From positions 187,893 to 251,892 of the forward strand of contig NMRA01000153.1 in NCBI GenBank assembly GCA_002633005.1: a stretch of DNA of 64,000 bases, written 5' to 3'. This stretch comes from Phoronis australis (Eukaryota > Animalia > Phoronida). Under the pieces are notes generated by a model that saw nothing but the letters and a program-made list of their open reading frames with translations, did not search any database and was not told the DNA's origin. The position numbers and the translations under genes were made by a program. How positions within the stretch are numbered: position 1 is the first letter of the stretch; every line of letters starts with the position of its first letter. Below are positions 127-24,059 of the stretch, piece by piece.

Positions 127-250
127 AAAAAATCCAGCAGACGGTGAAGATCGATGCTTCCACAGTTGAGATTGAGGAAAGAGGTGTCAAGCTACGGCTG
201 ACAGTAGTTGATACGCCAGGCTTCGGCGATTCTATAAATAATGGCGACTG
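127..250 (+). CDS. SEPT2: SEPT2-like septin (gene 1), internal exon with switch I and G3 motif; upstream exons lie outside the window
   Basis: tttcag acceptor, gtatgt donor; translates [42 protein letters not shown] (septin DTPGFGD). Confidence 0.95.
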
Positions 251-710
251 GTATGTGTTTGTGCCCCAATTATCGTCTGGTGGATCCGAGAATTGCTTTC
301 AGTACCTTTAATTTCTCTTGAGCTAAATTACCTTTCATGGTGTCCTTACCTCCATCAACCAAGGTTGGTGTAACACATCATCTAGGATCTTCAGTGTTTT
401 TTTTGCATTTAGTGAATTTTTTCATGGTTTTACTATAGTTGCTTGGGCAATATGCCAGTTGCCTCATCTGTTACATTGATTGACAAGTGTTATTTTACTC
501 TTATTTCTCTGTTAAACTCTTATTCTTTGCCTCTGAGGATAAAACTAATAGATAGTTATGTCTCATCAGTGGCATTCTCCTGTTCAATCCTGATCAGTTT
601 GACCAATTTACAGACTAAAAGTGTGGTATCCTGGTGAAGTCGGGCATCTGTTAGTTGTTCAGCAGTTGTGACTCGGTTAATCTCATTTGTCTTGTCTGGT
701 ATATTTTCAG

Positions 711-845
711 TTTTAAAACCATCATCCAATACATTGATGATCAGTACGAGAGGTATCTCCATGATGAGAGTGGCCTCAACCGGCGCAACATAACTGACAA
801 TAGGGTGCACTGCTGTTTTTATTTCATCAACCCAGCCGGCCATGG
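711..845 (+). CDS. SEPT2: SEPT2-like septin (gene 1) exon
   Basis: ttttcag/gtatgt; [45 protein letters not shown]; phase-compatible with flanking exons. Confidence 0.96.
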
Positions 846-854
846 GTATGTACA

Positions 855-914
855 AACATAACTGACAATAGGGTGCTCTGCTGTTTTTCTTTCATCAACC
901 CAGGCAGCAGTGGA
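855..914 (+). repeat. Intronic tandem duplicate of the 3' end of exon 711-845
   Basis: aacataactgacaatagggtgc...ttcatcaacccag repeated with 68-bp period (787 vs 855). Confidence 0.9.
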
Positions 915-1311
915 TACAAACATGTCCTAACACGGGTCAGGCATCAAAACTATTTGAACTTGCCATGAATTGCTGGTTGTCATGCCAGATGTTAAATTTA
1001 AGTTGTTGTCATTGGGTATAGAGTTAAAAATCAACTTCTACAGTTTCTACTTTCAGACAATATGTACTTTCAATACTTTGTTGATATTTGACTAAATGCT
1101 CGGACTTGTCGATATGGTCTTACATAATCTTAATGATTGTTTTTTTACTTTGTTTTCAGTAGCATAACTGCAAGCAGTCATAGTCAAAAGTTAGTTTTTT
1201 CTTCCACGGGTTTATAGAAGATTTGAGGTCATGTGACTTGTTTTTTCCATGGCCATATCGAGGGCCCAAAACACTTGTACCTGTATGTTTAAATGGTGTA
1301 CTGTGTTGTAG

Positions 1312-1429
1312 CATGAAGCCATTAGACGTTCAGTTTATGAAGGCTATTCACCACAAGGTCAATGTTGTCCCTGTCATCGCCAAGGCTGACACGCTCACAA
1401 AAACCGAGGTGCTGAAACTGAAGAGAAGG
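1312..1429 (+). CDS. SEPT2: SEPT2-like septin (gene 1) exon with G4 motif
   Basis: ttgtag/gtaagt; [39 protein letters not shown] (AKAD = G4). Confidence 0.96.
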
Positions 1430-2143
1430 GTAAGTGTGTCTGTCCAAAAGGTGGCAGTGTCTACCTTTACACCATTCATTCCAATAGTTGCGTATTGGCC
1501 ACCAAAAGGTATGTTTTGTTTTGAGCTAGTTTATAGCCCAACTAAAGATTTCAATGGCGAGCGATGTTTGAGAATTGAGGTTTGATTTTACATTTTGAGC
1601 TGGTTCTTCATTTCTGCATCTTGAACAAATACGTTGGTATGGTGTTTAAAGAAACTAGGGTGTTCCCTTGAGTTTCAGATGGTAGACGGTCTCCAAAGTA
1701 AAACTGTTTACAACCATTGTCACAAATCTGTGCAAATTTCTGTACGAGTACCTGTCAAAGTTAAAAAGTGTCGTTTCCGATGAATTGGGTATTATTGGTA
1801 TTAAACTTGTGCCAACTGTCACTCACCTATCATCTCGTGAACTTTCTGCTGCTTAGTATATTGCACTAAATGTTGCAGAGAGGCAGACTCGGGCGAATAC
1901 TGATATAAAACAACTATAAACCCACTTTCCGCCACGAAGACCAATTTTTTGTTTAGACCACCTACCTTCATGAAATTGTCTCAAAATTTTCCTTAACGAA
2001 AATAGGTGTGATTTCCGGGCATGGAAATAACCGACAGTCTTTTGTAGCTCGATAGCAGGCTGTAAAGGTTAACCTGCCACAGTGTGTTGTCACTGCGTGC
2101 CGTTTGTTTCTCCGGACATGGTCTTCAGGAATGACGATCTGGC

Positions 2144-2321
2144 AATTGACCTATCACCAGGATTTTAAATGAAGGCTTAACTGACCAATCAGAACGCAGC
2201 ATTCTTGACACACCTTCGTTTCCAAGCCGCCATTTTACCCGACAAACAACAGGTTGCCGGGTAAAACTTATTGTTTGTCTGTCAACATTGCGCAAGGGGT
2301 GGAGCTTGCAATAGGTCAATT
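2144..2321. mobile_element. Small unclassified MITE-like element
   Basis: 11-bp perfect TIR AATTGACCTAT/ATAGGTCAATT around a CpG-richer interior. Confidence 0.4.
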
Positions 2322-2519
2322 CTTTGCTAGACTAAAAATCTTGGTTTCTTTGATGGAGAGCGAGTTTATAGCTGTTCTAAATCACTTTTATTGAGTATTG
2401 TTTACCAGAATTGTTAATGTTACACTACGCTTCATTAGGCTGCATAAAGCAGATTTTTTATTCTTACGTGGTCTGAAATGCTTTATAATATGATTTTGCT
2501 TGTTTTCGGCATTTCATAG

Positions 2520-2621
2520 ATACTAGATGAGATAGGCGACCATGGAATACAGATCTACACTTTACCTGAGTGTGATGATGATGAAGATGAAGAATTTAAA
2601 GAGCAGTGTCAACAGCTAAAG
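2520..2621 (+). CDS. SEPT2: SEPT2-like septin (gene 1) exon
   Basis: ttcatag/gtaaga; [34 protein letters not shown]. Confidence 0.95.
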
Positions 2622-3236
2622 GTAAGAAATTAGTGTAATATAAATGACAATATAAAAATATCTTAAAACGGACAATCACCGCACAAATGAAAAAATTCAT
2701 ATTGATTCAACGTTTCGTCTATTCATTAGACATCATCAGGTTATAAACAATAAGACATCAAATTTCGATATACCAGCCATGTTACATCCATGAAGTGAAA
2801 TGAGTGAGGCAAAAAACTGATGTAATTATAAATATCTTGTCTCTTAAAGTAAAGGCTTAAGCGGAGGCATTTTTGATAGTATGTTAAGTAAAAATACAAA
2901 TCATATCCGATCATGTAAGATACATTTGTCTGTGTTAATTGGTCTATTGAGGGTAAAACGTTAGTTTTCCCCAACAACGTTCTAATTTGTCGTGCTGCAA
3001 CTACAAGGTTTTGCTTAAAAAATTCATTAGATTGCAAGTTAGCTTAATATTGTGTCGTGTACAGATAGGACAGTCAAGAAAGAACGAAGTGCCTCTATAA
3101 AGCAAACAAAGGCAGGCAACTAAAATCGATCACTTGATGTTATACAAACCATGATGTGGCTAGATTACTTAGTTATTCCTTGTGTCACAGCTCCAGTCTA
3201 GACCTAGTAGTGATGGATCCATATTCTGTTGTATAT

Positions 3237-3319
3237 TGTGCAACTCATGACCAGCTCCTGGTTGTGATGTGATGTTTATTAACACAATAACACAATCAGG
3301 AGCCAGAAATTAGAACACA
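3237..3319 (-). ncRNA. Singleton pre-miRNA-like hairpin at the distal end of the cluster
   Basis: CUGGCUCCUGAUUGUG/CACAACCAGGAGCUGG long stem with basal AAUUU/GAGUU and UGUGU/GCACA pairs. Confidence 0.5.
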
Positions 3320-3323
3320 GGCT

Positions 3324-3400
3324 GACGCCAAGGGACTGAAATTAAAGGGAGCTAATTATAATGTAGACATTAACTCAGCGAACACTTCAATACTAGCGAC
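3324..3400 (-). ncRNA. Diverged family-2-like hairpin d
   Basis: GAGUUAAU/AUUAGCUC and AUUGAAGU/AUUUCAGU stems; flanking similarity to copies a-c. Confidence 0.35.
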
Positions 3401-3512
3401 ACCTATTGCGAGTTACTCATCAGGTGCAAAGTAAACAGATACACTTATTTGTGGAATTGTTAAGTCTAGAAGCCGTTTTCCAATGAATGTGAACACAGAA
3501 CTCAGGTGATAT

Positions 3513-3596
3513 TGGGTGCACCTATTTTTGGAACTGTCAACACTAGAATCTGTCCTAACTAGTGCTTGGCAGTTGCCAAATACAAGTGAACAACTA
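3513..3596 (-). ncRNA. Family-1 pre-miRNA-like hairpin A; 5p UUUGGCAACUGCCAAGCACUAG (3580-3559)
   Basis: Stem UUUGG-C-AACUGCCAA-G-CACUAG / CUAGUG-UUGACAGUU-CCAAA, 12-nt loop, lower stem, CNNC (CACC) about 17 nt after predicted 3' cut. Confidence 0.6.
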
Positions 3597-3660
3597 AACA
3601 TCGTTATAAACAGTTAATAACTTTCAGCAACCAATATGAACTTAGAAATACCGTGATCAC

Positions 3661-3735
3661 TGAGTGTTTGGAACTGCCAAAGGTAGAATCAATATCACTA
3701 GCAATTGACCATTGCCAAATTAAACTGGACATCCA
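3661..3735 (-). ncRNA. Family-1 hairpin B (degenerate lower stem); 5p UUUGGCAAUGGUCAAUUGCUAG (3719-3698)
   Basis: Paralogue of A; first 12 nt identical to vertebrate miR-182-5p; deletion in the basal stem. Confidence 0.4.
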
Positions 3736-3829
3736 GACTTCATGTCATGGTCATTCGACTTATAAACAGATACAACTATCTACAAACTTGTACTGCGAAT
3801 TCAAACAAACATAGAAATACTGTGATCAT

Positions 3830-3912
3830 AGAATGCACTTGTGTTTGGAACAGTTAAGGCCAGAAGCTATTTAACTTGTGGTTGGCAGTTGCCAAATTAA
3901 AGTGAACACCCA
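3830..3912 (-). ncRNA. Family-1 hairpin C; 5p UUUGGCAACUGCCAACCACAAG (3896-3875)
   Basis: Paralogue of A with a weaker upper stem. Confidence 0.45.
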
Positions 3913-4043
3913 TACGTCCCAGTTTGATTTTATTATAAAATAGTTGAATTTGATGTGCTTTCATAGCTTCGTAAAAACTGGAGAGTTCGTTATTGCTTAA
4001 TATCAATAGTACTGATACTTGATGAGAATTGTGAAAGCGAAAC

Positions 4044-4116
4044 ATGGCAGTACCATCAAAATGAACAGTGCTAATTACAATCTCATCAGCACTGAAGCCT
4101 TTAACACTACAACCAC
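4044..4116 (-). ncRNA. Family-2 pre-miRNA-like hairpin a; conserved 3p arm AUUAGCACUGUUCAUUUUGAU (4075-4055)
   Basis: CAGUGCUGAU/AUUAGCACUG upper stem plus G:U-rich lower stem. Confidence 0.55.
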
Positions 4117-4159
4117 ACTATTGAGATTGAGAGTCATTGTAACAGTAATACCTAAACAT

Positions 4160-4380
4160 CAGGGCTTGGAATGACCAATGACAAAAAACGCGGAAACTTT
4201 GAAACTTTTACGGCCCAAATCATGCCCGATAACCATCCTTGAAATGGTCAATGTGACAAAAAACCGGGAGGACTAAAAAAAAAAAAAAACGTTACCACCA
4301 TCAGTAGCATGCGTCTGCGTCCTTTTAGCTCGCCCGTCCACTCCCAACCCACACATTTTTGGCTGCAGAGCGGTAGTATT
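4160..4380 (-). mobile_element. hAT-like MITE, inverted partial copy of 11506-12014, truncated at the assembly gap
   Basis: Near-identical reverse complement of about 11783-12014, starting with TIR CAGGGCTTGGAAT. Confidence 0.9.
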
Positions 4381-4387
4381 TGTCACT

Positions 4388-4541
4388 NNNNNNNNNNNNN
4401 NNNNNNNNNNNNNNNNNNNNNNNNNNNNNNNNNNNNNNNNNNNNNNNNNNNNNNNNNNNNNNNNNNNNNNNNNNNNNNNNNNNNNNNNNNNNNNNNNNNN
4501 NNNNNNNNNNNNNNNNNNNNNNNNNNNNNNNNNNNNNNNNN
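4388..4541. other. Assembly gap (N run)
   Basis: 154 Ns. Confidence 1.
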
Positions 4542-4644
4542 CTTCTCATGATGGTAATTCGATTCGTGAGGAGATCAACAACTCTCTAAAATTGTATAGC
4601 AACTACAACCGTAAAAATATGACAATCATTGAGGATTCTTAAGT

Positions 4645-4714
4645 GCTTGGCACCAGTAATATTGATAAGCGATGAGAAGTGTGAAAGCTACTCATCACAC
4701 CGGATTGTGCTAGC
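4645..4714 (-). ncRNA. Family-3 weak hairpin (near-identical copy at 5877-5946)
   Basis: GUGAUGAG/CUCAUCGC stem; the gtgaaagc motif (plus strand) recurs near 4031, 4884 and, as atgaaagc, 5357. Confidence 0.3.
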
Positions 4715-4936
4715 CTGTTTTTTATCAGCTATCCACAACCTTGTGTAATGAACAGAGTCCACTAGTTAAGAAAAGATGGCAATAAGGTATTGCTTAAATG
4801 AAGACTAATTATGAATGATGAGATTAATAGCCTGTCAAGCCTAAAAATTAACATCCACAGAACTCATGAGGGTCATGGTGTGGTGTGAAAGCTATAACTT
4901 CTACATTAAACACAAGCATAGGAATACGATGGTCAT

Positions 4937-5016
4937 TGATTGCACTTGTGTTTGGAATTGTCAAGGCTAGAATCTATTTAACTAGCTTTTAACAATGCCA
5001 AATTAAAGTGAACGTA
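4937..5016 (-). ncRNA. Family-1 hairpin D; 5p UUUGGCAUUGUUAAAAGCUAGU (5002-4981)
   Basis: AUUGUUAA/UUGACAAU and GCUAG/CUAGC pairing; CNNC (CAUC) about 18 nt downstream. Confidence 0.55.
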
Positions 5017-5062
5017 CACTTCCCATGATGGTCATTCCATTCATAAGCAGATAAGGTGATCA

Positions 5063-5147
5063 TTGGGTGCACCTATTTTTGGAACTGTCAAGACTAGAAT
5101 CTGTTCAACGAGTTCTTGGCAGTTGCCAAATCTAAATGAACACCCAA
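5063..5147 (-). ncRNA. Family-1 hairpin E; 5p UUUGGCAACUGCCAAGAACUCG (5130-5109)
   Basis: UUGGGUG/CACCCAA and CAUUUA/UAGGUG basal stem; AACUGCCAAGA/UCUUGACAGUU upper stem; CNNC (CACC) about 18 nt downstream. Confidence 0.6.
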
Positions 5148-5208
5148 ACTTGCCACGATGGTCATCATTTTTAACAGATAATTACTATGAACAAGTTGAA
5201 AAAACATG

Positions 5209-5275
5209 CCAGTATTATCAAAATGAACAGTGCTAATTACAATCTCATCAGCATTGAACATTTCAACAATACCAC
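5209..5275 (-). ncRNA. Family-2 hairpin b; 3p arm identical to copy a (5237-5217)
   Basis: 14 consecutive pairs GUAUUGUUGAAAUG/CAUUUUGAUAAUAC (3 G:U), then CAAUGCUGAU/AUUAGCACUG. Confidence 0.62.
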
Positions 5276-5521
5276 CAAGCTATTAAAATTGAGAATCATC
5301 GTAATATTATTTAAAAACTGAAACACTAATGATGACGATGCATGTTGAGCGCACCTATGAAAGCTACTTATTACTCTAGTTTTTGTTGCCACATGGTTAT
5401 TGACTATTTACTTTTACATCCAATTTCCGAAATAAGTTAACTGTCAAAGTACTAGTGATATCACTGCAAAAACTGTCCAAGAATTTCTGCATTGAATACG
5501 AATATGGAATACAATGGTTAT

Positions 5522-5603
5522 TGTGTGCACTTGTGTTTGGAAATGTCAAGGCCAGATTCCATTTAACTGGCTCTTAACAATGCCAAATTAAAGTGAACAC
5601 ATA
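5522..5603 (-). ncRNA. Family-1 hairpin F; 5p UUUGGCAUUGUUAAGAGCCAGU (5587-5566)
   Basis: GCCAG/CUGGC is a compensatory change relative to GCUAG/CUAGC in D. Confidence 0.6.
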
Positions 5604-5687
5604 CACTTCTCATGGTGGTCATTGTATTTATAAGGAGACGACTACAAATTTGTACAGTGAATACGAACATAGAAATATAGTGATCAT

Positions 5688-5771
5688 TGAGTGCAGTTAT
5701 GTTTGGAACTGTCAAAGCTAGAATCTAATGTTAACCAGCTGTTAACAATGCCAAATCCAAATGAACACCCA
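5688..5771 (-). ncRNA. Family-1 hairpin G; 5p UUUGGCAUUGUUAACAGCUGGU (5755-5734)
   Basis: UUGUUAA/UUGACAG, AGCUGG/CUAGCU and GGGUG/CACUC pair fully only on the minus strand (G:U). Confidence 0.58.
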
Positions 5772-6015
5772 CACTTCTCATGATGGTAATTCGATTCGTG
5801 AGGAGATCAACAACTCTCTAAAATTGTATAGCAACTACAACCGTAAAAATATGACAATCGTTGAGGATTCTTAAGTGCTTGGCACCAGTAATATTGATGA
5901 GCGATGAGAAGTGTGAAAGCTACTCATCACACCGGATTGTGCTAGCCTGTTTTGTATCAGCTATCCACAACCTTGTGTAATGAAAAGAATTCACTAGTTC
6001 ACAGTTGACAAAACT

Positions 6016-6089
6016 TGACAATATTATTAAAGTGGGCAGTGCTAATTAGAGTATTATGACCACCACTGTACAGTTCAACACCACTGCCA
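6016..6089 (-). ncRNA. Family-2 hairpin c; 3p arm AUUAGCACUGCCCACUUUAAU
   Basis: UGGCAGUG/UAUUGUCA, UGUUGAA/UUUAAUA and CAGUG/CACUG pairing on the minus strand. Confidence 0.58.
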
Positions 6090-6262
6090 TGCTATTGAGA
6101 ATTAAATTTGTGGCTAGACATGTTTTGTTGGAATTATTAAGTCTAGAAACAATATCATTTACACTTGACAATTGACTTTTGAGTGATAAATCTACCATAT
6201 GAAATTCACGGAAAATTGACCGGTGTTCTTGTTGAGGTCAAGAAATTGTTGAGAATTTATTG

Positions 6263-6334
6263 TGCGTAGAACTACACTGGAGTGTGCCGACATTAAATCT
6301 CAGCCAGCACATCTTCAGTGCAATAAACTACACA
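6263..6334 (-). ncRNA. Hairpin e (family-2-like loop); 5p arm contains UAUUGCACUGAAGAUGUGCUGG
   Basis: About 20-bp upper stem plus UGUGUAG/CUACGCA basal stem; first hairpin after the donor at 6447. Confidence 0.58.
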
Positions 6335-6447
6335 ACTGCTGGTGCAATTAGAAACACCCCACAAGACTTAAAATTTCTGTCAAAGTTGCTGTTAAAGACC
6401 CATGACTGAAACTCAATAGTTTCGTTGGTGGACGCCGAGTTACTCAC

Positions 6448-6548
6448 CTTGACTACATTGGATCTCTGAGGAAGCTTGTGCATCATAATTCTCTGACCAG
6501 TTTTCCCACATAACTCTGAGTGTACATTGCTCAGGAAAAGAGGTGACT
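6448..6548 (-). ncRNA. Putative first exon of the antisense host (pri-miRNA) transcript
   Basis: Starts at Inr TCA(+1)GT (6548) and ends at AAG/GTGAGT donor (6447-6442); the ATGs it contains open only short frames. Confidence 0.55.
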
Positions 6549-6660
6549 GATTTTGGGGTATCATTGCAGTGTTTAAATAGCCCACCAGTGTAGGATCCCT
6601 CTCTGGAAGTAACCAATCAGCAAGCATATCACGTTGTCCAATCAAGCGAAAAATGATTGG
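6546..6660 (-). promoter_or_regulatory. Pol II core promoter: Inr TCAGT (6550-6546), TATA TATTTAAA (6579-6572), three CCAAT boxes (6613-6617, 6638-6642, 6656-6660)
   Basis: TATA starts exactly 31 nt upstream of the Inr A; CCAAT boxes at about -65 to -112. Confidence 0.65.
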
Positions 6661-6840
6661 TCACAGGCATCAGTCCTGGAGAGGGAGTTCAGGCCTATTC
6701 ATGGATTTAACTGGACAGGATTGCCTGGGGGATTAGTACCCACTGGGATTAACAATCAACATACAAACTGTTGGCATCTGTCTACCTCATACTGTAGCAC
6801 ACCTCATAATTACCTTAAATTTGTTGGGGGTAGTGTACTG
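6661..6840. promoter_or_regulatory. Repeated GGATTA module copy 1
   Basis: Core atggatttaactggacaggattgcctgggggattagtacccactgggattaac; GGATTA at 6730 and 6746. Confidence 0.5.
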
Positions 6841-7429
6841 AAAGTTTACTTTGAACTAGTAAATTTTCAAAAAATGACATGTTTGGTACAAATTCATGCA
6901 TCTTTGTAAGGTCTTAATACTGTAGGTTATCTTTTATGTGATGAATACAACAATAACAAGGTTTTTATGGACTTGTTCTATTTCCTTGGCCATAAATTAG
7001 TTTTGAAATATTAAAGATTTGATATTTTTTATTTCTCACTGTTTTCATTTTATTTTCAAATCTGTTGGTTAAAATAATCATGTAAGATACTTTTTCGTAA
7101 ATAAATTCTATCCTAAATGATTTAAACTACAGTAAATGCAAGTGTTGATTTTGCTTTTAGTAGCTTTTAAGCTAGTTAAATAGATTTATGTTTTGTGTGT
7201 CTAATAAATGAAGTTGGCATCCAAAAAGCATACATTTCATTTTAGAATAATAATCCAATCGTAATTTTCAATTTCAACATTTTTGTTCTGATCAGTATTG
7301 ATTTTAAGATCTAGTGCTTCCAAGTATTGTTAGATTTGTCTCTGTTTAAAACAAATAGATGTTGGTGTTTGTGTTTTTTTATCTTTATCTTTTGTAATTT
7401 TTTCTCGTACCACAGACTAAGAATGGTGC

Positions 7430-8550
7430 TGTGATTTGGGCGTAATATTCATTTAATTTCTGGGTAGGTTCTTTTAGACTAGATTGTTTGCTATCAAATT
7501 AATGAGTTAAAGACACTGTTGAACTGTCAAATATTCGTCTTCTTGGTTATTTTATATCTTTACTTGGTTTAACTAAAGCAATAAAAGTGCTTGAATATAT
7601 ATATATACAAATCAGTAATATTCGTATCGTGATATTTTTAATCTTTTGTTACTGGACATATTGTTATCAATTTTCAGGAAACAATGTATTTTTGAATATC
7701 TTGAGTACAGAATAAAATAGATGGTCTTCCATAATTGTTTTGTTTTCATAACCCAACTTGTTGCATCATATTTATTTGTTGTGTTCTCTTCACTTAATTA
7801 TATCTCGCAACTTATAAAATATGAACAAGTTCTGAACTATACTTAAAAATTATAAAATGTTATCACTGACAGTTTTTTAATTATAAATTGTAGTATTTTG
7901 TCTCTCGTTAAACTTTCACATGTTTTACTGCTGAATATAATTATTTTTATTTTCTGTTCCTATGTGGAAATGATTTTGTCCATGAAATTAGTCCTGCTTG
8001 TTTTTGTTACAAGATGCTTTCTGAATTTAATTTTTTGGTAATTCTCTTAAATCATGGCCTTGTATTTGTTGAGTGAATGGGTGTAATATTGTTTTAATTT
8101 CTGGATTGTTTTTTGGGCTATAATTGATAGCTATCAAAGTAACCAGTAAAAGACTGCTGGTTGGTCAAAATATATTTTTTCTTGGATTATTTTGGAAATA
8201 AAACCACCTAGAAATTCATAACTACTGTTTAAGATTTACAGATTTATAATATTCATGCCATTAATTTTAATCTTTTCCTACTGAATGTATAATTATCAAT
8301 TTACAGAAAACCCTATATCTTTAAATATCTCAGCACATGATAAAGTATATCATCTCCCGTGTTTTTATGCAAGTAACCCAACTTGCTGCATCATTGATAT
8401 TTATCTGTAGTGTTTTCTCCACTAAGTTATGTCATGGTATAAGTTTTTAAGGTGTAAATTTATGTTGTTAAACTTTCACATGTTTCACTACTGAATGTAA
8501 TTTATGTTTATTTTCTGTTGGTTGTAAGATGTTTTCTGAATTTAACATTT
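7430..8550. repeat. Old direct duplication (about 7430-7960 vs 8080-8550)
   Basis: Shared blocks gtaatatt..ttaatttctgg, gctatcaaa, taacccaacttg..gcatcat, gttaaactttcacatgttt..ctgaat. Confidence 0.7.
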
Positions 8551-8822
8551 TCCTACATTACAGTGTGAAACAAAAAGAAACAACATGCCTAAAAAGCAAT
8601 TAGTAAAGCACATTTTTTTTCTTTTCAATTATACTGGGCAATCATATTTTGAAGACCCAGTGTTTTTGATTTAAGACAGTTAAACTGATGCATGATTTAA
8701 AAGATATTTTTTACCACAGCACTTTTACAATTTTTACCCTATCTCCCTTATCCAAATAACCCAATTCCCCTAACCATGTCTTTTCAAATTTGTTCCTTGT
8801 TGTTAAATTAAGGAGGTTCTCT

Positions 8823-9010
8823 ATAACCTGTTTGATCTATTGACTGGTATGGTGAGGGACATTATCCCACTCAGTGATTTAACTAGGCAGGGTTACCCAT
8901 GGGGATTAGTGCCTGCTGGGATAAACTGCCAACTGGTGGTGTGTAGTTGCAGCTGTCTATTTCATGCTGTTAACCTGAGAATAGTTTCTTTTCATTTAAA
9001 AAGGTGTAGT
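8823..9010. promoter_or_regulatory. Repeated GGATTA module copy 2
   Basis: gtgatttaactaggcagggttacccatggggattagtgcctgctgggataaac; GGATTA at 8903. Confidence 0.5.
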
Positions 9011-10740
9011 TAACAGCACCTTGACTAATAAACAAGCTATTGTTAAGAATTGTTTGGTGTTTATATACATGTCAAGATCACTCTTATGTTTATTATGTTT
9101 GTATGGGTATGGTATCCTGATGATTGTGGCCTGTTGTACTGGACATCCAAGTATCAATATTCAACAGGAAATTTTAAATGGGCAAAAGAATTAATTTGGT
9201 TTATCATGTTGCCCTAGTGACGTAGTTGTAGGTTTTTGTGTGCTTATCTTGGCAGAGTGTAATTTCTAAACTGAAAAATTATTAAATCCGTCTAGTATAT
9301 CAGCTCCTATTTGAATACCAAGTTCAGTGAGATGGCTTCAGTATCAGTATCTTATTAGAACCATTGCAACAAATTTATTTTAGTAAAACATATTATCTCT
9401 AGTACATGTTTTTGTGCATTTAGTAAAGGGCAAGTGAAACTTAGACTTATTTTTTGTCAGTGCACTATGGGGACACCTATTTCTATGGATTAAGCAATTT
9501 TTTGGTTTTAATATTTTAGGTTACATATTGGTGAAAGATCTACTTTTTAGTTTTGTTTATTGCTCACAGAGTATCACGCATGTAGTATTGTTTTTATTTA
9601 AATTTCTTGAATATTTGAAAAATATGTATTTGTGATTATTGAGCTATAAGTATGTATTCTAGTAAAATTCATGCTGAGAAAAATACCTTGGAACAGTAGG
9701 GCAAATTAACTTTATTTGTAAATATTAATTGAATAAGCTGCATTATTTTGCAAACACTCACATTGTATATCTATCCCTAATAACTAAACAATAAATAACA
9801 AAAAGATTTTAAATTGTAATGTAACTCTGATACACCTTATTTTTCATATTATTGATTTGCTCTCCATAGTGTATAAAAAATTCCCCACGATTCTTAAGTT
9901 CTGAGTTTGCTTTTAATGCAAGTTGTTTGTTACACTGTATCAGGGCACACAAAATTGGAAACAATTTTTTTTAAAATAGGAATTCAGTTAAAAGCCTGTC
10001 TTTTCAGTGGTATTAATCAAATTAATCTCGTTTTGAAGGCCTAGCTTGTGCGTTGCAGCAGTTACTTGGATTTTTATTATTCATTTCCATCCTATTTCAG
10101 TGGTTAAGTGTTAAAGATATGTAGGACTTTATTGACATGTCTTTAAATTTAGCTAAATATCTACAATTAAAGTATAGCATTTAATTCAGAAAAAGTGATA
10201 TTTTCTGTAAGCAGAAATTCATTAGGATTTAATTGTTGACTTTATACAAATATATGCTTATTGTTATTGTCTCTCCATAGTCATTCAAAAGTGGGTGAGA
10301 AACATTCCTTATAGTTTCTTGAAATGCATAACAGGTAGTATTCATTTTAAAGCTTTGTATGAATCCATTCAGCCATTTCCGAGATATGATCTTCAGAAGT
10401 GCCAATTTTTTACATTTTTTATGTAGTTTTACATTACCTTAGTATTGGGCATCCTCTTTGATTTGGTTGCCAGATCAAGGTAATTTTGTAAATGTTTAGT
10501 ACAACAAGTTTAATGTCTAATACTTGGATTTAAGTCCAGAAAATGCTATTTCAGGGGGTAAAACTCCGTATTTGATTGAAGACAAATGCCTTTTTCTTAT
10601 GACAATTTAGGGATTATTTTAAACTATTTTCCCAATAACTTGTATTGAAAATTATTAACTGGACCCCAATTTTTACATAGTTTTTTATCTATATTGGAAA
10701 CTGAAGAAATTTTGCTGTAATTTGTTTGCTTGATAAAGTT

Positions 10741-10880
10741 TTGCCCCATCCCTGGATTCAGCTAAGCAAGGTTACCTGTGGTGGATTATCCCCTGCTATG
10801 ATGAACTGTGACTAATTGACAGGTGACATACTGACAACTCCTGGGAATTACCCTTCAGTTGAAGAAGGTGTTGTATATTA
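10741..10880. promoter_or_regulatory. Repeated GGATTA module copy 3
   Basis: ctggattcagctaagcaaggttacctgtggtggattatcccctgctatgatgaac; GGATTA at 10783. Confidence 0.45.
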
Positions 10881-10989
10881 AAAATTGACATTGAAACAAC
10901 AAACTAAACAAGAATGACAGGTTCCCTGTCAACCTGTAAATCATATTCTTCTTTATTTTTCTTTGGAATGACTAAGTGTCCTAGTTTTC

Positions 10990-11066
10990 AATGATTATCT
11001 TGTCATTATGCAAGATTATTACAAAGATAATGATTATCTTGTCATTATGCAAGATTATTACAAAGA
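10990..11066. repeat. Perfect 39-bp tandem duplication
   Basis: aatgattatcttgtcattatgcaagattattacaaaga x2. Confidence 0.9.
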
Positions 11067-11505
11067 CAATTGGCTAATGTGTGTAGTTAAGTGGCAAATA
11101 TTATTTGTCAGAAACCTCTTCTCTTACAGTATATTTTTCTTGTTCATTAACCTATCATATAATCACTAACCATTATTTTTTGTATGAAATTTACAAAGTC
11201 TATTTTTATTCTACTGGCTACAAAAGCATGTCTGTAATTTTCTAAGGTCTTTTAGCTAATAACTCCACTGTCAAAAATGAAGTTGTCATAATTCTTTGAC
11301 AAAAAGCAGTCTTAATTTTTGACAATTAAACTGTTGGGCTGGAAGGACTTAAAAGAAAACTCCAGATACTGTTTTGTAAGTAATGAAATAAGGAACTAGA
11401 ATTTACAAGTTCGGTGTGAAAAAAATGTTTTAAAAATTCAGCATCTAAATGAAAAATCCTGTTTTTATAAAAAATGTATAAAAATGGAATTCATTGCACA
11501 TAATA

Positions 11506-12014
11506 CAGGGCTTGGAATTTTCCGCGGAAACGCGGATTTCCGCTTTTTTCAAATGTGCTTTCCGCTTTTTTTTATTTTTTCGAGTAAAAAAATCGGATTT
11601 GATGTAAAATTTCCGTGGCAAATTCCTTTCTTACCACGGCGTTGCAGACGACGTTCACCTTGAAAAGCGGAAGTTGCTCTTTATGTTTCGGAGGAACGTA
11701 AATTGTCAACATTGCCGGGGCACCTGGGACAGCGTGGTGGGATTTTCAATGGCGTCTCGTGTTATTGTTAAGCGCGGCACCAATACTACCGCTCTGCAGC
11801 CAGAAAGTGTGTGGGTTGGGAGTGGACGGGCGAGCTAAAGGGACGCAGACGCATGCTACTGATGGTGGTAACGTTTTTTTTTTTTTTTAGTCCTCCCGAT
11901 TTTTGTCGGGGAAAGGTTCACATTGACCATTTCAAGGATGGTTATCGGGCATGATTTGGGCGGTAAAAGTTTCAAAGTTTCCGCGTTTTTTGTCATTGGT
12001 CATTCCAAGCCCTG
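11506..12014 (+). mobile_element. hAT-like MITE with 6-bp TSD
   Basis: 13-bp perfect TIR CAGGGCTTGGAAT/ATTCCAAGCCCTG; ATAATA on both flanks. Confidence 0.88.
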
Positions 12015-12058
12015 ATAATAAGATCCTGCGGGTTATTTAAGAAATCTGATAGTTTGTG

Positions 12059-12287
12059 CAAGACTTGGAATTTTCCTCTTTTTTAAAAGGATTTCCTCTT
12101 GTTTGATTTCCAATTTCTTCTTTTTGGCTCTTTATCATTATTTTGACTTGATTCATGCAAAAATGTTTATTTCAGTTAAATTTTACGACACAAAATATGT
12201 ATCTTTCACACAAGCCCATTTATTTGTGGAGCGATACATCACCCGGGAGATTTTCCTCTTTTTTGTCATTGGTCATTCCAAGCCTTG
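12059..12287 (+). mobile_element. Older, shorter relative of the same hAT-like MITE
   Basis: Ends CAAGACTTGGAATTTTCC and TTGGTCATTCCAAGCCTTG match the neighbouring element's termini. Confidence 0.65.
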
Positions 12288-12778
12288 TTGGTATGTTAAA
12301 TATACTATTATCTTGAATGGGTTTACGCTCGAGCTTCTGAAAAATTATGAAAAATATTCCAGTCATCAGCTGTGAAACCGAACTCAAAGGGAGAGGGGTA
12401 GCCAATATTAGAAATATCTGTGGGCATTGTTGAAAATTTATGTATTAATATTTCAAAAATATTGATTGTTAACTCAATTAAAAAGAATGGAATGCTCTTG
12501 TTTTTCCTGCATTTAACCTGATGTAACAGTATGGTTTGGAATACAAAAGGACAAAAATGTGTCAGTGCTACTGACATATAATCAATGTTATCTTTTTTGA
12601 AGAGCTTGTGTCTTCCACCATTTTTTAAACACAGTCTATTCTAAAGTCCCAGTTTGCTGATTCATTGTTACACCATGTTGAGGAGATACAACTCTTGGCC
12701 TTGTCATTGTTAATTCTAAGTCATTGCTAAAACTTCACTGCAAGATAATATGAGATGCACGTGCGGCACAGAGGTCTG

Positions 12779-13179
12779 TGCTGGGTTGCATGAAACAGTC
12801 CCAAATAGGGACTCGACTAAGTTGCCTAAATCTTTGACCTATCTGTGTCTTTGTTAACTCTCAGATGGAATCTTTTTCTACCATTTCATCTTTAATATGA
12901 CCTCCTCATCCTGAGCCCTGAATTCAATGAAAACAAATAGGGACTTAGTCCTTAAGTTAGGAGTGTTGCATGAAAAGATCCCCAAATAGTTTCATTAATA
13001 ATGCCAATTCAGTGTTGAGTTCACTCTCAATTTTTTTATCAAAGTCAAAAGTTGACTACATAATGAAACTAAAATAGCAGAAGAAATGACAATCGGTGTT
13101 TTCACAAGTCCACAAATATGCAGTAGATTTAGGGAACTTAGTTGAGTCCCTATTTGGGACTCTTTCATGCCACCGGGCA
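12779..13179. mobile_element. Harbinger-like MITE (partial relative at about 42950-43335)
   Basis: About 55-bp imperfect TIRs (..gcatgaaacagtcccaaatagggactc..); CTG on both flanks. Confidence 0.7.
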
Positions 13180-13866
13180 CTGATGAGTAATATGAGTGTA
13201 GATACTGATGAGGGATACATGTGTTTCTTTTTCCTGTTTTTGCTGTAGCTTAACCTTGCTTTGTCTCTGCTGCAAGCCAGAATTAACTATATCTCAACTG
13301 TTGACATGGACATTGCGAAGCACGCTTTTTACTGTAATTTTCTACCTATTTAACTCACATTCATGTATAGCTGTCAAGAGATTTTTTGTTCAATGTCTCA
13401 AGAAAATTAAATATAAAATTTTGTCCAATTATTGGCTTGGTTTTTACAATGTAGATATTTAAAACAAAATTTTTCTCAGCGAGTTGTGCGCCCATATTTC
13501 TTGTTAAATAGCCTCAAAATCGTGCCCAATGCAATCTTAGAAGGGTTGGCCTTCCTGTTGAGTTGGCGACATTTCGACATTGCTTTTTATTTGCCAATGC
13601 CCTCGTCAGTTTGAGAGAGGAATAACTTTTCTGTCAGGAAATGGAAAATTTGCGTCGCTCAGTAACCCAGTTTAGAATTTGTGTTTTAGAGCAGCTTTAA
13701 GGGATAATTTTCCTTTAATTTTCTTAAGGAAAATATTAAAAAGTCTGACTCCTAAAAGTGCTTTCATAATCTTAGACAACTTGGTTCTTACAAAATTGTG
13801 AAGTGGACCAAAGTCTGGAGGGTACTGTATGCTGTCTGGTGTGGGAAGCTACAGAAAGTTCCACTG

Positions 13867-14050
13867 ATAAACCTGTTTGATCTATTCACTGGTATTGTCA
13901 GGGGGTTATTAACCCATTCATGGATTTACCTGAGCAGGGTTGCCTGTGTGGATTAGTACCTGCTGGGATAAATTAGCCTCAGTCTAGGTGTTGGCACTGC
14001 ACATTTCATGCTACTAAGCACTGGGTAATTGATTATCTTACACTTCAACA
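13867..14050. promoter_or_regulatory. Repeated GGATTA module copy 4
   Basis: atggatttacctgagcagggttgcctgtgtggattagtacctgctgggataaat; GGATTA at 13950; 5' flank closely matches copy 2. Confidence 0.5.
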
Positions 14051-15599
14051 GCTCTGCTTAATGATGGTTGGCTTTAATAATGGGCCAATGAAACTTACTG
14101 TAATGAGGCTTAGAATTACATGTCAACTCAGTCATAGCTCATTGTTGTAGCTTGCCTGTGTTTTCTTGGAGTTTTCACAAGGTTATTAAGGACTTTGGAA
14201 AAATTGACCAATTTTGGCCAACTTCAGAACATGATATCTCAGATACAGCTGGTTGAAGCCTTCAGATACTATAATTTATGCACTGTTCTTTAAAATGTTT
14301 GTGGGCATTAGGGGCTATAAAGAAATAGGACTTTAAGGATTTTATGAAAGAACTAAAAAGTTGCATAAAACCAAAATTTTACAGCATTTTAGAAATCCAT
14401 TACGGCATTTTTGAAATTTCATCTGGACATTTATTTCAAATAAAATTTGGTCGTGTTAGGGATACCAGTGTTTTACTTAGATTATATTCCTTGTGTTAAG
14501 TTTTACTAAATAGACATGGTGAGATGAATCGGGTAATGTATTACTGGTGTTAAGTAGAAAATGCTATGTTGAAGGGCTTTCTACTTTCTGAATATGTGTT
14601 CTTTTACTTAATTAAAATTGCTGATATTGTCTATATACACACACTTGTTGATAAGGTCCAAAGAATGTTGATATACTCAATTTTGTTGTTTTTTGATAAA
14701 GCTACTGTTTCTCACAACAATTGTTCATTAAAACAAATAAAACAAAGTAAAACAAAAGGAATCTGTGAGACTCCTGGTAACGACAATTTTACCTTTTCTT
14801 GATCTCTGTCTCACAACAAACTGGGCCAAATTTTTGTAATTTCGCGAGAACAGCAGTCGATTATTAATGTTGTTACTGTTAATGTTGATCTGTATTATTA
14901 TTGTTACTTCCGTGTGGCGTCTCAGTTTTATCATTTTGAAATGTCTAAATTTGTTATTTCATGGGTCTTGTTTTATTTGCTCACTGTACATATTTATGCT
15001 CGAATTTATTGTATTTTATATTTCACCTAATATGTATCATATAATTAAATGTTGTTTTTGTTCGAGATAAAAATTGTTCCTGTTGTGACATTTCTTTTTG
15101 GCCCAGCAAACATAATAAATCTTAAATAAACAAATAAAAAAATAGTTACAAAATTTAGTAGTCAACAGTGAGGACTATTTGCTGTTGTGAACATCATATA
15201 CTTCTTTATTTGACTAGTCATCTATTGTCTGTGAATCTGTTGTGATATTGAAGCCTTTTCTGTTTGTTTAATGGTATCTTCATATGGCTTCACCATGTTA
15301 CTTACAATGTAGATATGTTGGGCCTTAATAAGTCTTGGCATCACCCAGTTACATACAGTGGATGGAAATTTGTATGTTTGTTACACGAGTTAAATCTTGG
15401 CTTCATCTAGACTTACACTAGAGGACAATTAGTGTGTTATGTTATAGGTAAATCTTAATTTAATATGGATATCTAACATGTATTTTTCTTTACAAAAGCA
15501 TTTTCATGATTTCAAACAGGTGATTTCTCCTGCTTGTTTGGTAAAGTTGTGGATACAACCCCCAAGTTTCTAACAAAATAATTTCAGCATGCATGAGCT

Positions 15600-15790
15600 G
15601 TTTCCCTATTCAGTGTCATCATAAGGTGCTGTATCCCAATTTCTGATTTAACTATGCATGGTTACCCATAGGGGATTAGTTCCTACTGTGATAACTGGCC
15701 AACAGATTAGGTCCTCAGGGGAGCATTTGATGTTGTGAACTATGGATTAATTGTCTGTCACTTAAAGAAAGTTGGTTTACTGAATGCTGG
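15600..15790. promoter_or_regulatory. Repeated GGATTA module copy 5
   Basis: ctgatttaactatgcatggttacccataggggattagttcctactgtgataac; GGATTA at 15673 and 15744. Confidence 0.45.
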
Positions 15791-17397
15791 CCTTTGAAGC
15801 AATAAATTAACCAGTGTGGAATATAATTTTGATTTTATTCTTCTGTGGATGGGGTAAAATCTCTAGTCTGGGGCAGTCCCTAAAATTTGGGACACCGAAA
15901 ATCAAGCCGTAATTGAATCTCATTGATTCTGAAAATTGGGACATAGTAAATTTTTCAGTTTTCTCAAATATTACACACACGCTTTGTGTCAATAAAATTT
16001 GGTAATTGACTGCAGGTCACAAAATTGTTGAAAATAGTAGCCAATGTCACATATTCCTGGATCCCCATATAGTGTGTAACAACATCCAGTTGGATGATTG
16101 TGTGTCGGCGAGTGTAATTCTTGGAAAAGATGATATTGGCTATTTCTAAAATTTGGAAACTGCTCGACCTTAAGCCAAATAGGAAATTTTTGACTGTACC
16201 GACTCACTCTGTACGAAAAATAAAGAAAGTGACATTTCAATGCATGTTAAATAAAAAGTCTTCCTTTTTTGTTTGAGTCATACCTGTTGCCCGCTCACTT
16301 ATTTCACATAGCAGTAAGTGAAAAAATAACATCAGGTTTCTATTTTTCAAAGACAGATTGCTCAGCGCGAACCAAGCCAGTAATAAAATAACATTTTCTT
16401 AATGTTTTAGTTTTGTTGGAATTTGATAAAAGAGATTTTCCGCTTATCTGCCATATTGTATGCTAAACATATGAAGAATTATCATATCAATAATTGAAAA
16501 TAAAACTGATATCCTGTAAAACTCATGCATAATGAAATCACAATTTGGCAGTGAATTGACTGTTTATGTTTTTTGTGAACAGTGTGTTTTCTCTAAGCTA
16601 AGGACAATGTCTTGATGAGCCTGGCTGGTGACCGACAGACGGAAGCAGGCGACTTGTTCTAACCCATGCCTCGATTGTGTCCCTGTCCTTACGATTCTTA
16701 ACCAGATTGAACAACAGTTAGTCGGTTCCCACTTGTTTTTTCTCCCGTTTTGTGTTCGTACTGAGAACTGCCTTGGTGTGACATGGCAATTGAAGCACGG
16801 GTTACTGAAAAGAGATTGACAACAAACTGATAGAATGAAATTGATATTTTTTATTTTTCGATTACCGTAATTCTTCACTTATTTTAAAGGCTGAATACTT
16901 TGCTTCAAATGATAATTTTGACAAAATAAAATTTCACCCCTACCATATTGTGGGCTAAGTAGCTGAAGAATTACGGTTTCTGTACGTTGTTTCAAATAAT
17001 CAAACTTTTGTTTGAGTTTGCTTTATGTCCAGAATGAGTTCAAAGTAAGATAAAATAAGAATGAGCCAGTTTATTCATCTAAAAAGTAACACCTATGAGT
17101 GCCATTTCTATAACAGTGTTAACCATAGAAAACAGAAAGCGTTGATTTGCCCTATTTCATGACTCAGTTTTCTATGATGCGTCGTAAAATTAAATCAACA
17201 ATTGACATTCGCCCTCTTCTGAAGCCTGATGTCCCGAATTGATGCCTGTACTGTATTACAAAAACAGCGATGACATTAACTAAGAACTACACAGTTCAGA
17301 ACATTCACTTTACTACTTTCAGGAAGTGCTTTGATATGCACAAGTTGTTTATATAAATGACATTGCCATTAAATGAAGTTCATTATATAAATTGCAG

Positions 17398-17543
17398 GAG
17401 TCGATACCCTTTGCGGTGGTTGGCTCGAACCAAATCATTGAGGTTAAAGGTCGTAAGGTGCGAGGTCGCATGTACCCTTGGGGTGTGGTTGAGGTTGAGA
17501 ACCCTGACCACTGTGACTTCATCAAGCTGAGGACGATGCTGAT
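17398..17543 (+). CDS. SEPT2: SEPT2-like septin (gene 1) exon, septin unique element
   Basis: ttgcag/gtaagt; [49 protein letters not shown]. Confidence 0.97.
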
Positions 17544-18822
17544 GTAAGTATGATATGTCGACAGCTGTCTTCATCGGACCACTTGTGTAAAACCTGTAAT
17601 GTAGTTGTGTACAACATTAATACTATAGCACCAAATCAAATGTATTTCCATGTTCAAATTTTGTTCCACAGCTCCCTCTGCAGACAAAAGTTTTGAAAAG
17701 TTGTGGGCATTCGCAGTGATGTTAGAGGTCCTTGAAAATGAAATGTGTCTTTGGCAATTGTTTTTGTACAGAATCGGTGAGATTTACCGTACTCTTGTTA
17801 TGTCAGTGGGAGCTTGAAATCCATGAGGTGCCGCAAATAAAGTTAGAGAAATGCCTGCATTCAGGAAAGAACATGGGTCCCTTATCACACAACACCCCTG
17901 TGGTGATGAACTACTTTCTGATCTCAATCTATTCATCAGATGTCAAGTAAAGGGACGTTGGTGAATATAGAGTCACCCATTGTACATTTGACCTTGAACT
18001 TGGCAGTGTAAGAGACATTCATTAATCTTGAAGGCTCTGACACACCAATCTTTTTCTCAGAACGTGTGCAAGCCCATCATAATAGTTTGATGAAATGGGT
18101 TGGAGACGGGCAAAAATGTCCAACTTTGCCCAAAAGCTTGCCTCAAGTAGCGCATGGTTTTTATTCTGAGATTGAACTGCACTTAGTTGGTTGCAACTAT
18201 GTTCACAAGATTGTGCTGAGAACTACCTTGGTGTGACGGGGACCCTAAGTGGTTTCACCATCTAGCATCACTGTAAAACCTCCCCACTTTAAGACCCGAT
18301 GTGGCCTACAGCTGAATTTTTTTTCGTTTTTTTGTTGTAAAATATATCGGCAAATGAATACTTAACTGTGTTCAAATTTTTTGTGAAGTCTACAATGATG
18401 CTAGAAAATGTTTGAAAAACTAATGGGCACTCAAGACAATGTAAGAAGACCTTGAACTATGAGAAAGTGGTAGTTTTGGCAATTATATTTGTCCGAAATT
18501 GGTTACGTTTAACTGTATTTTTTGTGGTTATGATCGCATAACCTGTACAATTAGCGGAAAATTTTGTTTCTAATTCCTTGTTCCACTCTGCTGATTTCAA
18601 TGATTATATTCAGTAGTTATAATTTACTTCTTGCATTGAATTCTGCGCATGTTGACTTAATTGAAACAAAGTAAAAAGTTTGAAGGTAATTTTACAAGCT
18701 GTTAGCGTAGTCGGAAATTAAAAAAGGCTTCTGTCGTAGAATGTTTTAAACCAGTAGTGAACCACTCAAAGTTGAACTTTCCTGTTTAGTTGCAGTGCCA
18801 CCTGATGGTGTTACAATATTAA

Positions 18823-20335
18823 CCCTCTTGCTGCCAGAGCCCATGGTGACCCACATAACCTCCAGTGCCAGGCATTATAAAGCACCTTCTAGTGGCCATG
18901 TTACGAACTACTAACTTGTGCTTTAATTAATCATTTTTCAAGTGATGATCATTATTTTTCAAGTTACCATTGATACTGTGAGTAGAGCATAGATTTATCT
19001 TGTTGAGTACATTTCAGTTATCTAAAACATATTTGTTTTTTCAGAGTAGGGGCCTTGGAATCAAAAGACCCGTGGATAAAAATCTAAACATGCGTGTATT
19101 TTGGTGACAAAAATCAATTTATATGCTTCATTAACTATTTTACAAGGTCTTAACTTGTTTTTCTTACGATTCAGAAAGTATCTGTGGACCTGGACAAGAA
19201 CTAACAATTTTTTTCTAGGTTTAACACCAATAAACGATATTGATAAAATCAAGGTCTAATTGAAGAAAATCATTGAACTCTCAGTCTCTCACATACTTTT
19301 ACATGTTTATTATTTGAAAAACTGAATCAACAAATTCATTTTATGAACATATATACATGTTTACAAAATTAACAAGAAGTTAGAGTATAAGAATAAACAA
19401 GTTATTTTAATAAAGTAACTGATTTAGACACAAGTAACAAGTTCAGTCCTTTTTTCACAAGTGTTCAGTTCAGTCCTTATTACTCAACATTGTTTACAAA
19501 ATGTAACAAACCATTGATCAACAGAAACTTATTTTGTGACATAACTAATAAAACAAAATCGTTTGAAATATCGTGGAAGTGTTCTAATGATAATGTACAA
19601 ATGGTTTTCACAAGTCCGATAGATATTTGAAAGGCCGTCACAGCACGGATATCGTCCGGTGACACGGGAGCCCAGCCTTGCAAACACGAGTGTCACGATA
19701 ACGGCTGGCTTTTCGCGAGTATTGATCCGCGAAAATGTTCGTCTGGGTGCAAATCATCCTCATAAAATCCTTATTGAAGAAAAGTTTGAAGTAGTTAACA
19801 GGTTTAGTACCCACTAAAATCACGCGAATCCCTGGATCTTCAGTGAACTCAGACACTACGATCGAACAGGTAAGTTACTTGTGTCAGCCACCCATTCCTC
19901 GGGTAAAACGTCGCCACCGTTCTCAAGAACGGCATCCAAGTCAGCGTCCCTCATAAATCTTCTGAAGTAAAGCCTTCATACTCCTTGTCTCTATCAAAAT
20001 CGTTCGTAAAAATCGTATAAACCGCATCTAAATAACTATCGTCAAACTCGTTCGCCATGTTTACTATCTCAATACGCGTGGTTTTTAACTCGCGAATCAC
20101 GTGCGCTTTGACATCGTTGGAAGCCAAATTTTTCACTGAATGCTTAGTAAAACTAAATTTGATTGGCTTAGCCACATTTTCTTGTGGGTGTGCCTTCAAA
20201 ACCGACGCCAATTGGCTAAAATCTGAAGGGTACCTTGAGGCTGTTTTCTGGGTCACATGGTCGCAAATATGCGACTACGGCACTGGCAAGGGATAAAGTT
20301 GTTGTCGCAGAATTGCGACCACGGCAGTAAGAGGG
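18823..20335 (-). mobile_element. Internally deleted piggyBac element
   Basis: TTAA TSDs; TIR CCCTCTT(G/A)CTGCC; subterminal repeats; transposase remnant inside. Confidence 0.92.
19600..19860 (-). pseudogene. Frameshifted piggyBac transposase N-terminal fragment
   Basis: PVNYFKLFFNKDFMRMICTQTNIFADQY, then in another frame GWAPVSPDDIRAVTAFQISIGLVK, typical of the PGBD region before the DDD core. Confidence 0.8.
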
Positions 20336-20601
20336 TTAACATGAAGAGTCAGTTAGTTGTCCACAGAAAACAAAAGCGATATCATTTTGTTCTTTTACTC
20401 CACGGGTACTAAGGATTCATGCGAGACATTTTAATTTAGGCCATATCCTTATAGGTGAAGTGTAGGACTATGTGCCTATATTTGAGACAAATCGGTAAAC
20501 ATTTTCTTTGAAAATACGCGTTATCATGAATTCAACTGAATGGGTCTAAATACATGAATACACTGTTGTATAATATTGTGCTCTATGTTATTGAAATTCA
20601 G

Positions 20602-20727
20602 CACGCACATGCAAGATCTGCAGGAGGTCACTCAAGAGATCCACTATGAGAACTTCCGCTCAGACAAACTGGCTGGTGGTGCTGGCGGCGGCGGCGGCGG
20701 CGGTGGTGGCGCCACTCGCAAGGCAGG
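20602..20727 (+). CDS. SEPT2: SEPT2-like septin (gene 1) exon with poly-Gly tract
   Basis: attcag/gtgggt; [42 protein letters not shown]. Confidence 0.93.
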
Positions 20728-24026: not shown

Positions 24027-24059
24027 GTAGGTTGAATGGGGGGGGGCAAGGTGTAAGAA

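Follow-up and report, generated by a model that had tools for sequence, protein, structure and literature searches.

A predicted TATA-initiator promoter antisense within a septin intron of Phoronis australis faces a tandem array of microRNA-like hairpins

A complete set of Pol II promoter motifs lies on the minus strand at position 6548 of the 64-kb stretch of Phoronis australis DNA that was analyzed here as a whole (the window), and these motifs make a transcription start at this site likely. We consider it probable that this is the active promoter of a polycistronic primary microRNA (pri-miRNA) whose hairpins form an array at 3.2–6.35 kb. Promoter and hairpins are enclosed in the 14.8-kb intron 2622–17397 of a septin-2-like gene, on the opposite strand (Table 1); the first-pass annotation had described an antisense promoter in mid-intron. 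A non-coding host that would drive the hairpins is well supported, as the promoter faces the array, its strand is also the one on which the stems fold, the base skew shifts at the promoter and no open reading frame is present.

Table 1 Predicted features of the septin intron and its surroundings, in window coordinates.
Feature	Position	Strand	Remarks
Host septin-2-like gene	127..26537	+	Eight coding exons, joined open frame
Two AATAAA candidates	2387..2462	-	At 2462 and 2392; first AATAAA past the hairpin cluster
Candidate 3' splice site	3094..3120	-	Exon 2 would begin at 3094
Last hairpin, H3278	3252..3303	-	z -4.6; near-palindromic
Diverged family A hairpin	3333..3391	-	Predicted 3p UAGCUCC; z -3.7
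Family C hairpin	3524..3581	-	z -3.6
Two decayed family C copies	3649..3897	-	z -0.7, -0.5; 5p start AUUUGGCA retained
Family A hairpin	4052..4106	-	Predicted 3p UAGCACU; z -4.4
MITE-like high-copy repeat inserted in cluster	4158..4541		Runs into N gap 4388-4541; second copy at 11779-12016
Family B hairpin	4691..4750	-	z -4.9; inside 226-nt block 97% identical to 5774-5999
Family C hairpin	4948..5003	-	z -3.7; slightly stabler fold on plus strand
Family C hairpin	5075..5131	-	z -4.9
Family A hairpin	5214..5268	-	Predicted 3p UAGCACU; z -4.7
Family C hairpin	5533..5588	-	z -4.2
Family C hairpin	5699..5756	-	Predicted 5p AUUUGGCA; z -2.9
Family B hairpin	5923..5982	-	Predicted 3p start UAGCACA; z -6.1
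Family A hairpin	6023..6080	-	Predicted 3p start UAGCACU; weak fold, z -1.9
Hairpin H6297	6268..6325	-	z -4.3; predicted 5p seed AUUGCAC (Mir-92-type); CNNC at +17
5' splice site AAG/GTGAGT	6442..6450	-	9/9 consensus, GT at 6447
Predicted non-coding exon 1	6448..6548	-	101 nt; five ATGs, short frames only
Initiator TCAGTC	6545..6550	-	Predicted TSS, A 6548
TATA box TATTTAAA	6572..6579	-	From 6579, at -31 relative to initiator A
Three CCAAT/ATTGG boxes	6656-6660, 6638-6642, 6613-6617	-	Span -112 to -65
Five-copy ~250-nt element	6633-6878, 8797-9052, 10692-10918, 13840-14100, 15572-15820	Same orientation	GGATT sub-repeats (TAATCC on minus)

The TATA-like box, TATTTAAA, departs from STATAWAWR at a single position, and its distance of 31 nt from the A of TCAGT, remarked upon in the first reading, is exact (6579 to 6548). 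The three CCAAT/ATTGG boxes that had been announced at -65 to -112 are found at 6613–6660, starting at -112 (6660–6656), -94 (6642–6638) and -69 (6617–6613), and are presumably NF-Y sites. The initiator TCAGTC fully matches the Inr consensus TCAKTY as defined in the consulted sections of PMC3743134. With a TATA-like box ~30 nt ahead of an Inr, the site has the layout of a focused TATA-Inr Pol II promoter, a class that is in itself ordinary. Chance expectations were estimated from 300 dinucleotide shuffles in 2-kb blocks, on both strands of the window. The strict TATA+Inr pair is expected 0.88 times per shuffled window and observed four times, so that the pair alone is unremarkable; the pair combined with three CCAAT boxes is expected 0.003 times (0.03 if the motifs are defined loosely) and observed once, at 6548, figures that are optimistic because the patterns were defined after the site had been seen. 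CCAAT triplets within 60 nt occur only twice in the window.

Past the predicted start, the consensus AAG/GTGAGT donor that had been noted about 100 nt beyond +1 is present with its GT at 6447, delimiting an exon of 101 nt; it is one of four perfect 9/9 donors across both strands of the window. The ATG frames of this exon are indeed short (1–52 aa unspliced, 1–39 aa when joined to 3094), but they start from five ATGs and not three as first counted, and a protein-coding first exon at 6448..6548 was rejected on the ground of these short frames. The proposal of a non-coding host with the hairpins in its first intron holds for the host, judged by its anatomy, while the first-intron placing follows solely from the acceptor at 3094, one among 17 candidates under a simple rule and the first beyond the last hairpin. 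We lean slightly toward splicing of the 6447 donor to this acceptor. A focused Pol II start at 6548 would yield one non-coding transcript of ~3.5–4 kb, in which the strong donor of the 101-nt exon 1 would be joined to ~3094, leaving all hairpins in the intron; this donor may also keep the AATAAA at 6261 from acting on the RNA. Microprocessor (Drosha) and then Dicer would cut the 12 intact hairpins into microRNAs bearing the seeds AGCAC[U/A] (families A and B, 3p), UUGGCA (family C, 5p) and AUUGCAC.

The predicted 3' end, at 2462 or 2392, would make the transcript overlap the septin exon 2520–2621 in antisense. These two AATAAA signals, the nearest ones beyond the hairpins, lie on the far side of a septin exon, as would suit a transcript that controls septin in antisense, by interference or through the exon overlap, or that serves as a piRNA or endo-siRNA precursor, with the hairpins secondary. 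We regard this as highly improbable, since bulged stems of ~55–60 nt, the seed conservation and the CNNC motifs described below fit miRNA biogenesis and the stems are unlike perfect duplexes or phased piRNAs.

The hairpins, which the first-pass annotation had mentioned, comprise families A (four copies), B (two copies) and C (seven aligned copies plus fragments) and two singletons, in units of ~0.75 kb once the young repeat 4158–4541 is discounted. Among the 20 candidate stems, 12 reach z <= -2.9 on the minus strand, as single stems of 55–60 nt stabler than their shuffles (precursors measure 52–60 nt), and the other eight fold poorly. In 11 of these 12 the minus strand folds better than the plus strand. 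A window-wide filter retains 39 pre-miRNA-like stems, and 9 of the 20 minus-strand ones lie within the array, which makes up 5% of the window. A CNNC at +16–18 past the 3' cut is a canonical feature of miRNA genes and occurs in 8 of 14 hairpins against a background of 9.5%, a count over paralogues that are not independent but that represents four of five hairpin types. The basal UG at -14, an optional motif of canonical miRNA genes, is found in 1 of 14 hairpins (background 8%).

The alignment of family C has 94% of its cells paired (slid controls, 25–50%) and 3 of 22 pairs are compensatory; this covariation does not exceed that of shuffles, 129 of 500 of which reach three pairs. Positions 1–8 of the 5p arm are the best-conserved segment of the family (0.95, against 0.68 for the loop), the 5p start AUUUGGCA being invariant in 7/7 copies while the loops diverge. 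Searches of the whole window and of the intron against Rfam returned no family at the gathering threshold, the best match being mir-392 (E 0.04); H3278 matched mir-2/mir-11 weakly, at E 1.2, far under gathering.

Both strands of family C and of H3278 can fold, as would be expected of a tandem repeat of palindromic, MITE-derived units devoid of RNA function, whose promoter motifs would be coincidental or repeat-borne; the post hoc nature of the motif statistics points the same way. This reading is distinctly improbable in view of families A and B, which fold far more strongly on one strand by means of G-U pairs (4–8 versus 0–2), of the CNNC spacing, and of the predicted seeds, which match sequenced annelid miRNAs. 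Moreover, the hairpins and the promoter attract no reads originating from copies elsewhere in the genome, whereas true repeats nearby draw hundreds.

Several repeats were observed in and around the cluster. The 226-nt block 4542–4767, 97% identical to 5774–5999, adjoins the N gap and either arose by recent duplication or is an artefact of the assembly. The young MITE-like repeat has a second copy within 11505–12016, in opposite orientation, and is plentiful in RNA-seq from other loci. A palindromic repeat of ~410 nt (foldback/MITE-like) occupies 12775–13183, with relatives at 42964–43330. Farther away, two near-identical ~300-nt blocks (28693–28992 and 29357–29653) flank a single N and, judged by eye, are probably a scaffolding duplication, and the strongest stem of the window, at 38360–38440 (~-41 kcal/mol on both strands), is palindromic and probably repeat-derived.

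An independent sign that the minus strand is transcribed comes from base composition. On the plus strand the septin introns have an excess of T, with AT skews of -0.06 to -0.16, which disappears over the hairpin stretch only: 3200–6447 is A-rich, with a skew of +0.079 versus -0.105 over 6661–17397, and among 217 windows of equal length taken from 6661 on, not one attains the value of 3200–6447. The cumulative skew curve peaks at 6767, with a plateau at 6083–6963, so that the boundary coincides with the promoter. With the hairpins masked, the skew of 3200–6447 is +0.053 (p 0.13), which limits the firm statement to the loss of the T-rich skew of the host.

RNA-seq was inspected in four runs bearing the same species label, three of them stranded, of unspecified tissue, with ~18–19% of each stranded run sampled. 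In all three stranded runs the minus-strand depth is zero at 6425–6585 and across the hairpins, the septin exon bin having a depth of 17–19, and a search of these runs for minus-strand reads spliced at 6447 found no joint. The fourth run has no contig at the promoter or the hairpins. Pri-miRNAs are short-lived, and with the tissue unspecified the lack of reads is weak counter-evidence. The arms and 5' ends given for the hairpins are predictions. Low septin-direction intronic reads were seen over part of the cluster (4976–5459) in run X1 only.

This lack of reads, the poor fold of 8 of the 20 candidate stems and the young repeat inserted in mid-cluster would also suit a decaying, once-active cluster in which some stems and promoter motifs persist and transcription has ceased or almost ceased. 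We hold this to be improbable: no promoter element is damaged and their spacing is canonical, twelve stems are preserved, and family C has kept its 5p start invariant with its loops diverging.

The host septin has its best protein match in Owenia. A 36-row tree, built with 35 of the 120 proteins retrieved and no phoronid sequence, puts it among the lophotrochozoans but outside the molluscs, and does not separate an annelid placement (Owenia) from a brachiopod one (Lingula). Two peculiarities of the gene were observed: the 3' end of an exon with its donor (787–848) is duplicated with 89% identity at 855–916 in the intron, creating a second donor-like site, and an exon encodes a poly-glycine tract (GGC repeat) at 20680–20715.

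Upstream of the predicted start, at 0.1 to 9 kb, the intron carries five elements of ~250 nt that are absent elsewhere in the window and that, like the kinship of the hairpins discussed below, had been left out of the first-pass annotation. Their mean identity is 62%, and GGATTA is invariant in all five, within a ladder of GGATT sub-repeats ~15 nt apart. The core promoter follows only the nearest copy (6633–6878). Folded on both strands, the five elements gave weak consensus folds and a positive covariation penalty, and RNA-seq shows no reads on four copies, while the bin containing the 13840 copy has no more than a trace (depth <1); with no conserved fold and essentially no reads, they were rejected as snoRNAs or miRNAs. 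We take GGATTA/TAATCC to be the site of a K50 homeodomain factor, and our guess is that the array could act as an enhancer for such a factor. TAATCC shows no enrichment over the whole window (23 versus 30 expected), and the elements could instead be dead, duplicated upstream regions. Between the first two elements lie duplicated AT-rich segments (7372–7804 and 8015–8433; 26–31% GC, 66% identical).

The nearest resemblances to the hairpin array are found in annelids. The consulted parts of PMC8915122 describe novel embryo-enriched miRNAs of Capitella teleta in tandem clusters, which the authors compare to miR-430 and also to Drosophila testis clusters; the cluster miRNAs are embryo-larva enriched and absent from the gravid female body. 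Clusters lie on scaffolds 488, 60, 324 and 6. Scaffold_488 carries at least 19 loci over 6.6 kb, nearly all of those listed starting with UAAGCA on 3p, and other scaffolds have 3p UAGCAC or UUAGCAC. The Phoronis array has in common with these clusters tandem hairpins of ~55–60 nt, 130–300 nt apart over a few kb, and a 3p start [U/A]AGCAC, here predicted, with drift at positions 6–8. It differs in that Capitella matures are mostly UAAGCAC[C/U] and those predicted here UAGCAC[U/A], in the sequence beyond seed and apical stem, and in the admixture of UUGGCA and AUUGCAC hairpins; the consulted parts of PMC8915122 mention no promoter for the Capitella clusters.

For Platynereis dumerilii, supplement 2 of PMC12257675 (miRDeep2 on pooled 24–144 hpf RNA) contains, on scaffolds 24 and 13, arrays that pair 3p UAGCACC with star strands ending in GUGCUG[A/G]U, among the 32 of 154 matches listed. 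These share with the present locus the 3p UAGCAC, the apical stem GCUG[A/G]U...UAGCAC, precursors of 60 nt and a dense tandem arrangement; positions 7–8 are CC in Platynereis (the Mir-29 seed) and CU/CA as predicted here, and the Platynereis arrays span ~27–37 kb. These highly expressed arrays appear uncurated: scaffold_24 has no match in the curated file 4, nor has "Mir-29" in the main text, as far as consulted (PMC12257675). The 3p starts of family C found no tandem counterpart among the matches listed from supplement 2 (PMC12257675). In our window the apical pattern occurs four times, always in families A and B on the minus strand, with 0.05 expected, the pattern having been written with knowledge of both sequence sets and the four matches being two near-identical pairs. 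On predicted arms, the tandem 3p [U/A]AGCAC start is found in 5 of 14 hairpins, and the kinship to the annelid AGCAC-core clusters was compared by seed and apical stem only.

Membership in the established families was rejected. MIR-29 requires AGCACC and a conserved 3' half, and the predicted arms have AGCACU or AGCACA, an unlike 3' half and no Rfam match. MIR-96 requires the 5p start UUUGGCAC and its remainder, and family C has AUUUGGCA followed by U/A, not C, with an unlike remainder. MIR-92 requires AUUGCAC on 3p, and in H6297 this seed sits on the predicted 5p arm. What the predicted arms share with MIR-29, MIR-96 and MIR-92 is the first 6–8 nt, their 3' halves being unrelated and without an Rfam match.

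The miR-430 seed differs from the predicted seeds of this cluster. In its organization, zebrafish miR-430 resembles it by tandem units of few hairpins, a TATA promoter, which is sharp, and a non-coding host (bioRxiv 2021.08.09.455629 and PMC7283388, in the portions consulted). It differs by having many promoters spread over a locus of 0.6 Mb, where a single promoter and ~12 hairpins are present here, and by a demonstrated function at the MZT (maternal-to-zygotic transition), a role proposed here by analogy. Drosophila mir-309~6 is likewise a single early unit that brings together rapidly evolving copies drawn from several ancient families of seeds (PMC4238352, in part), and it is listed among the pre-MBT genes, a TATA-enriched class, in PMC3743134; its seeds are K box, Brd box, mir-279 and mir-3, compared with Mir-29-like, Mir-96-like and Mir-92-like seeds lying antisense in an intron in Phoronis. 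Tandem miRNA clusters of embryos are already known, as is this class of promoter.

If the locus behaves as its counterparts in Capitella and Platynereis and as miR-430 and miR-309 do, it may fire as an embryonic burst and repress maternal or early mRNAs; we give even chances to such a burst with maternal mRNA targeting. TATA promoters mark pre-MBT genes of the fly, but TATA+Inr is also common in genes of adult tissues (PMC3743134, in part), and the same promoter and microRNA cluster could be active in the gonad (testis or ovary) or in one adult tissue, with no role in the embryo. The skew change, which requires transcription in cells reaching the germ line, or selection, would agree with this, as would the Drosophila testis clusters invoked in the Capitella paper itself (PMC8915122). 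We find this choice of tissue rather unlikely, given that the Capitella look-alikes are enriched in embryo and larva and absent from the gravid female body (PMC8915122) and that those of Platynereis come from 24–144 hpf pools (PMC12257675).

The literature search, which left MirGeneDB, subscription papers and bioRxiv supplements aside, found nothing on this locus and nothing that connects the Capitella arrays with those of Platynereis. A search of paper text with six predicted arm fragments gave no paper on these miRNAs by title or abstract, and queries about miRNA clusters in septin introns or about an miRNA family of the spiralian MZT led only to the Capitella and Platynereis reports. Given this scope, an earlier naming of the hairpin family is possible.

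A broader and tentative reading, to which we give somewhat less than even credence, is that the AGCAC-core clusters of Capitella, Platynereis and this locus would be one old, Mir-29-derived embryo system, re-amplified and relocated, a spiralian counterpart of miR-430 whose promoter would here be fed by the five-copy TAATCC enhancer array and which would have recruited Mir-96- and Mir-92-type seeds. Such a system would have been overlooked because nothing but the seed and the apical stem is retained. Whether other annelids possess their cluster is a question raised by the Capitella authors (PMC8915122), and this locus together with the uncurated Platynereis arrays suggests that they do. A paper from 2025 on the MZT in annelids (PMC12550047) places maternal decay at the ~16-cell stage; "miRNA" and "microRNA" have no match in its main text, nor in PMC12637686, in the portions covered. 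If the one-system reading is true, the locus reveals the wiring of that system, hidden antisense in a housekeeping intron. This locus and the uncurated Platynereis arrays predict GUGCU-type sites in the 3' UTRs of decaying maternal mRNAs, and a single compact promoter with its candidate enhancer array would offer a handle on the activation of the first zygotic genes.
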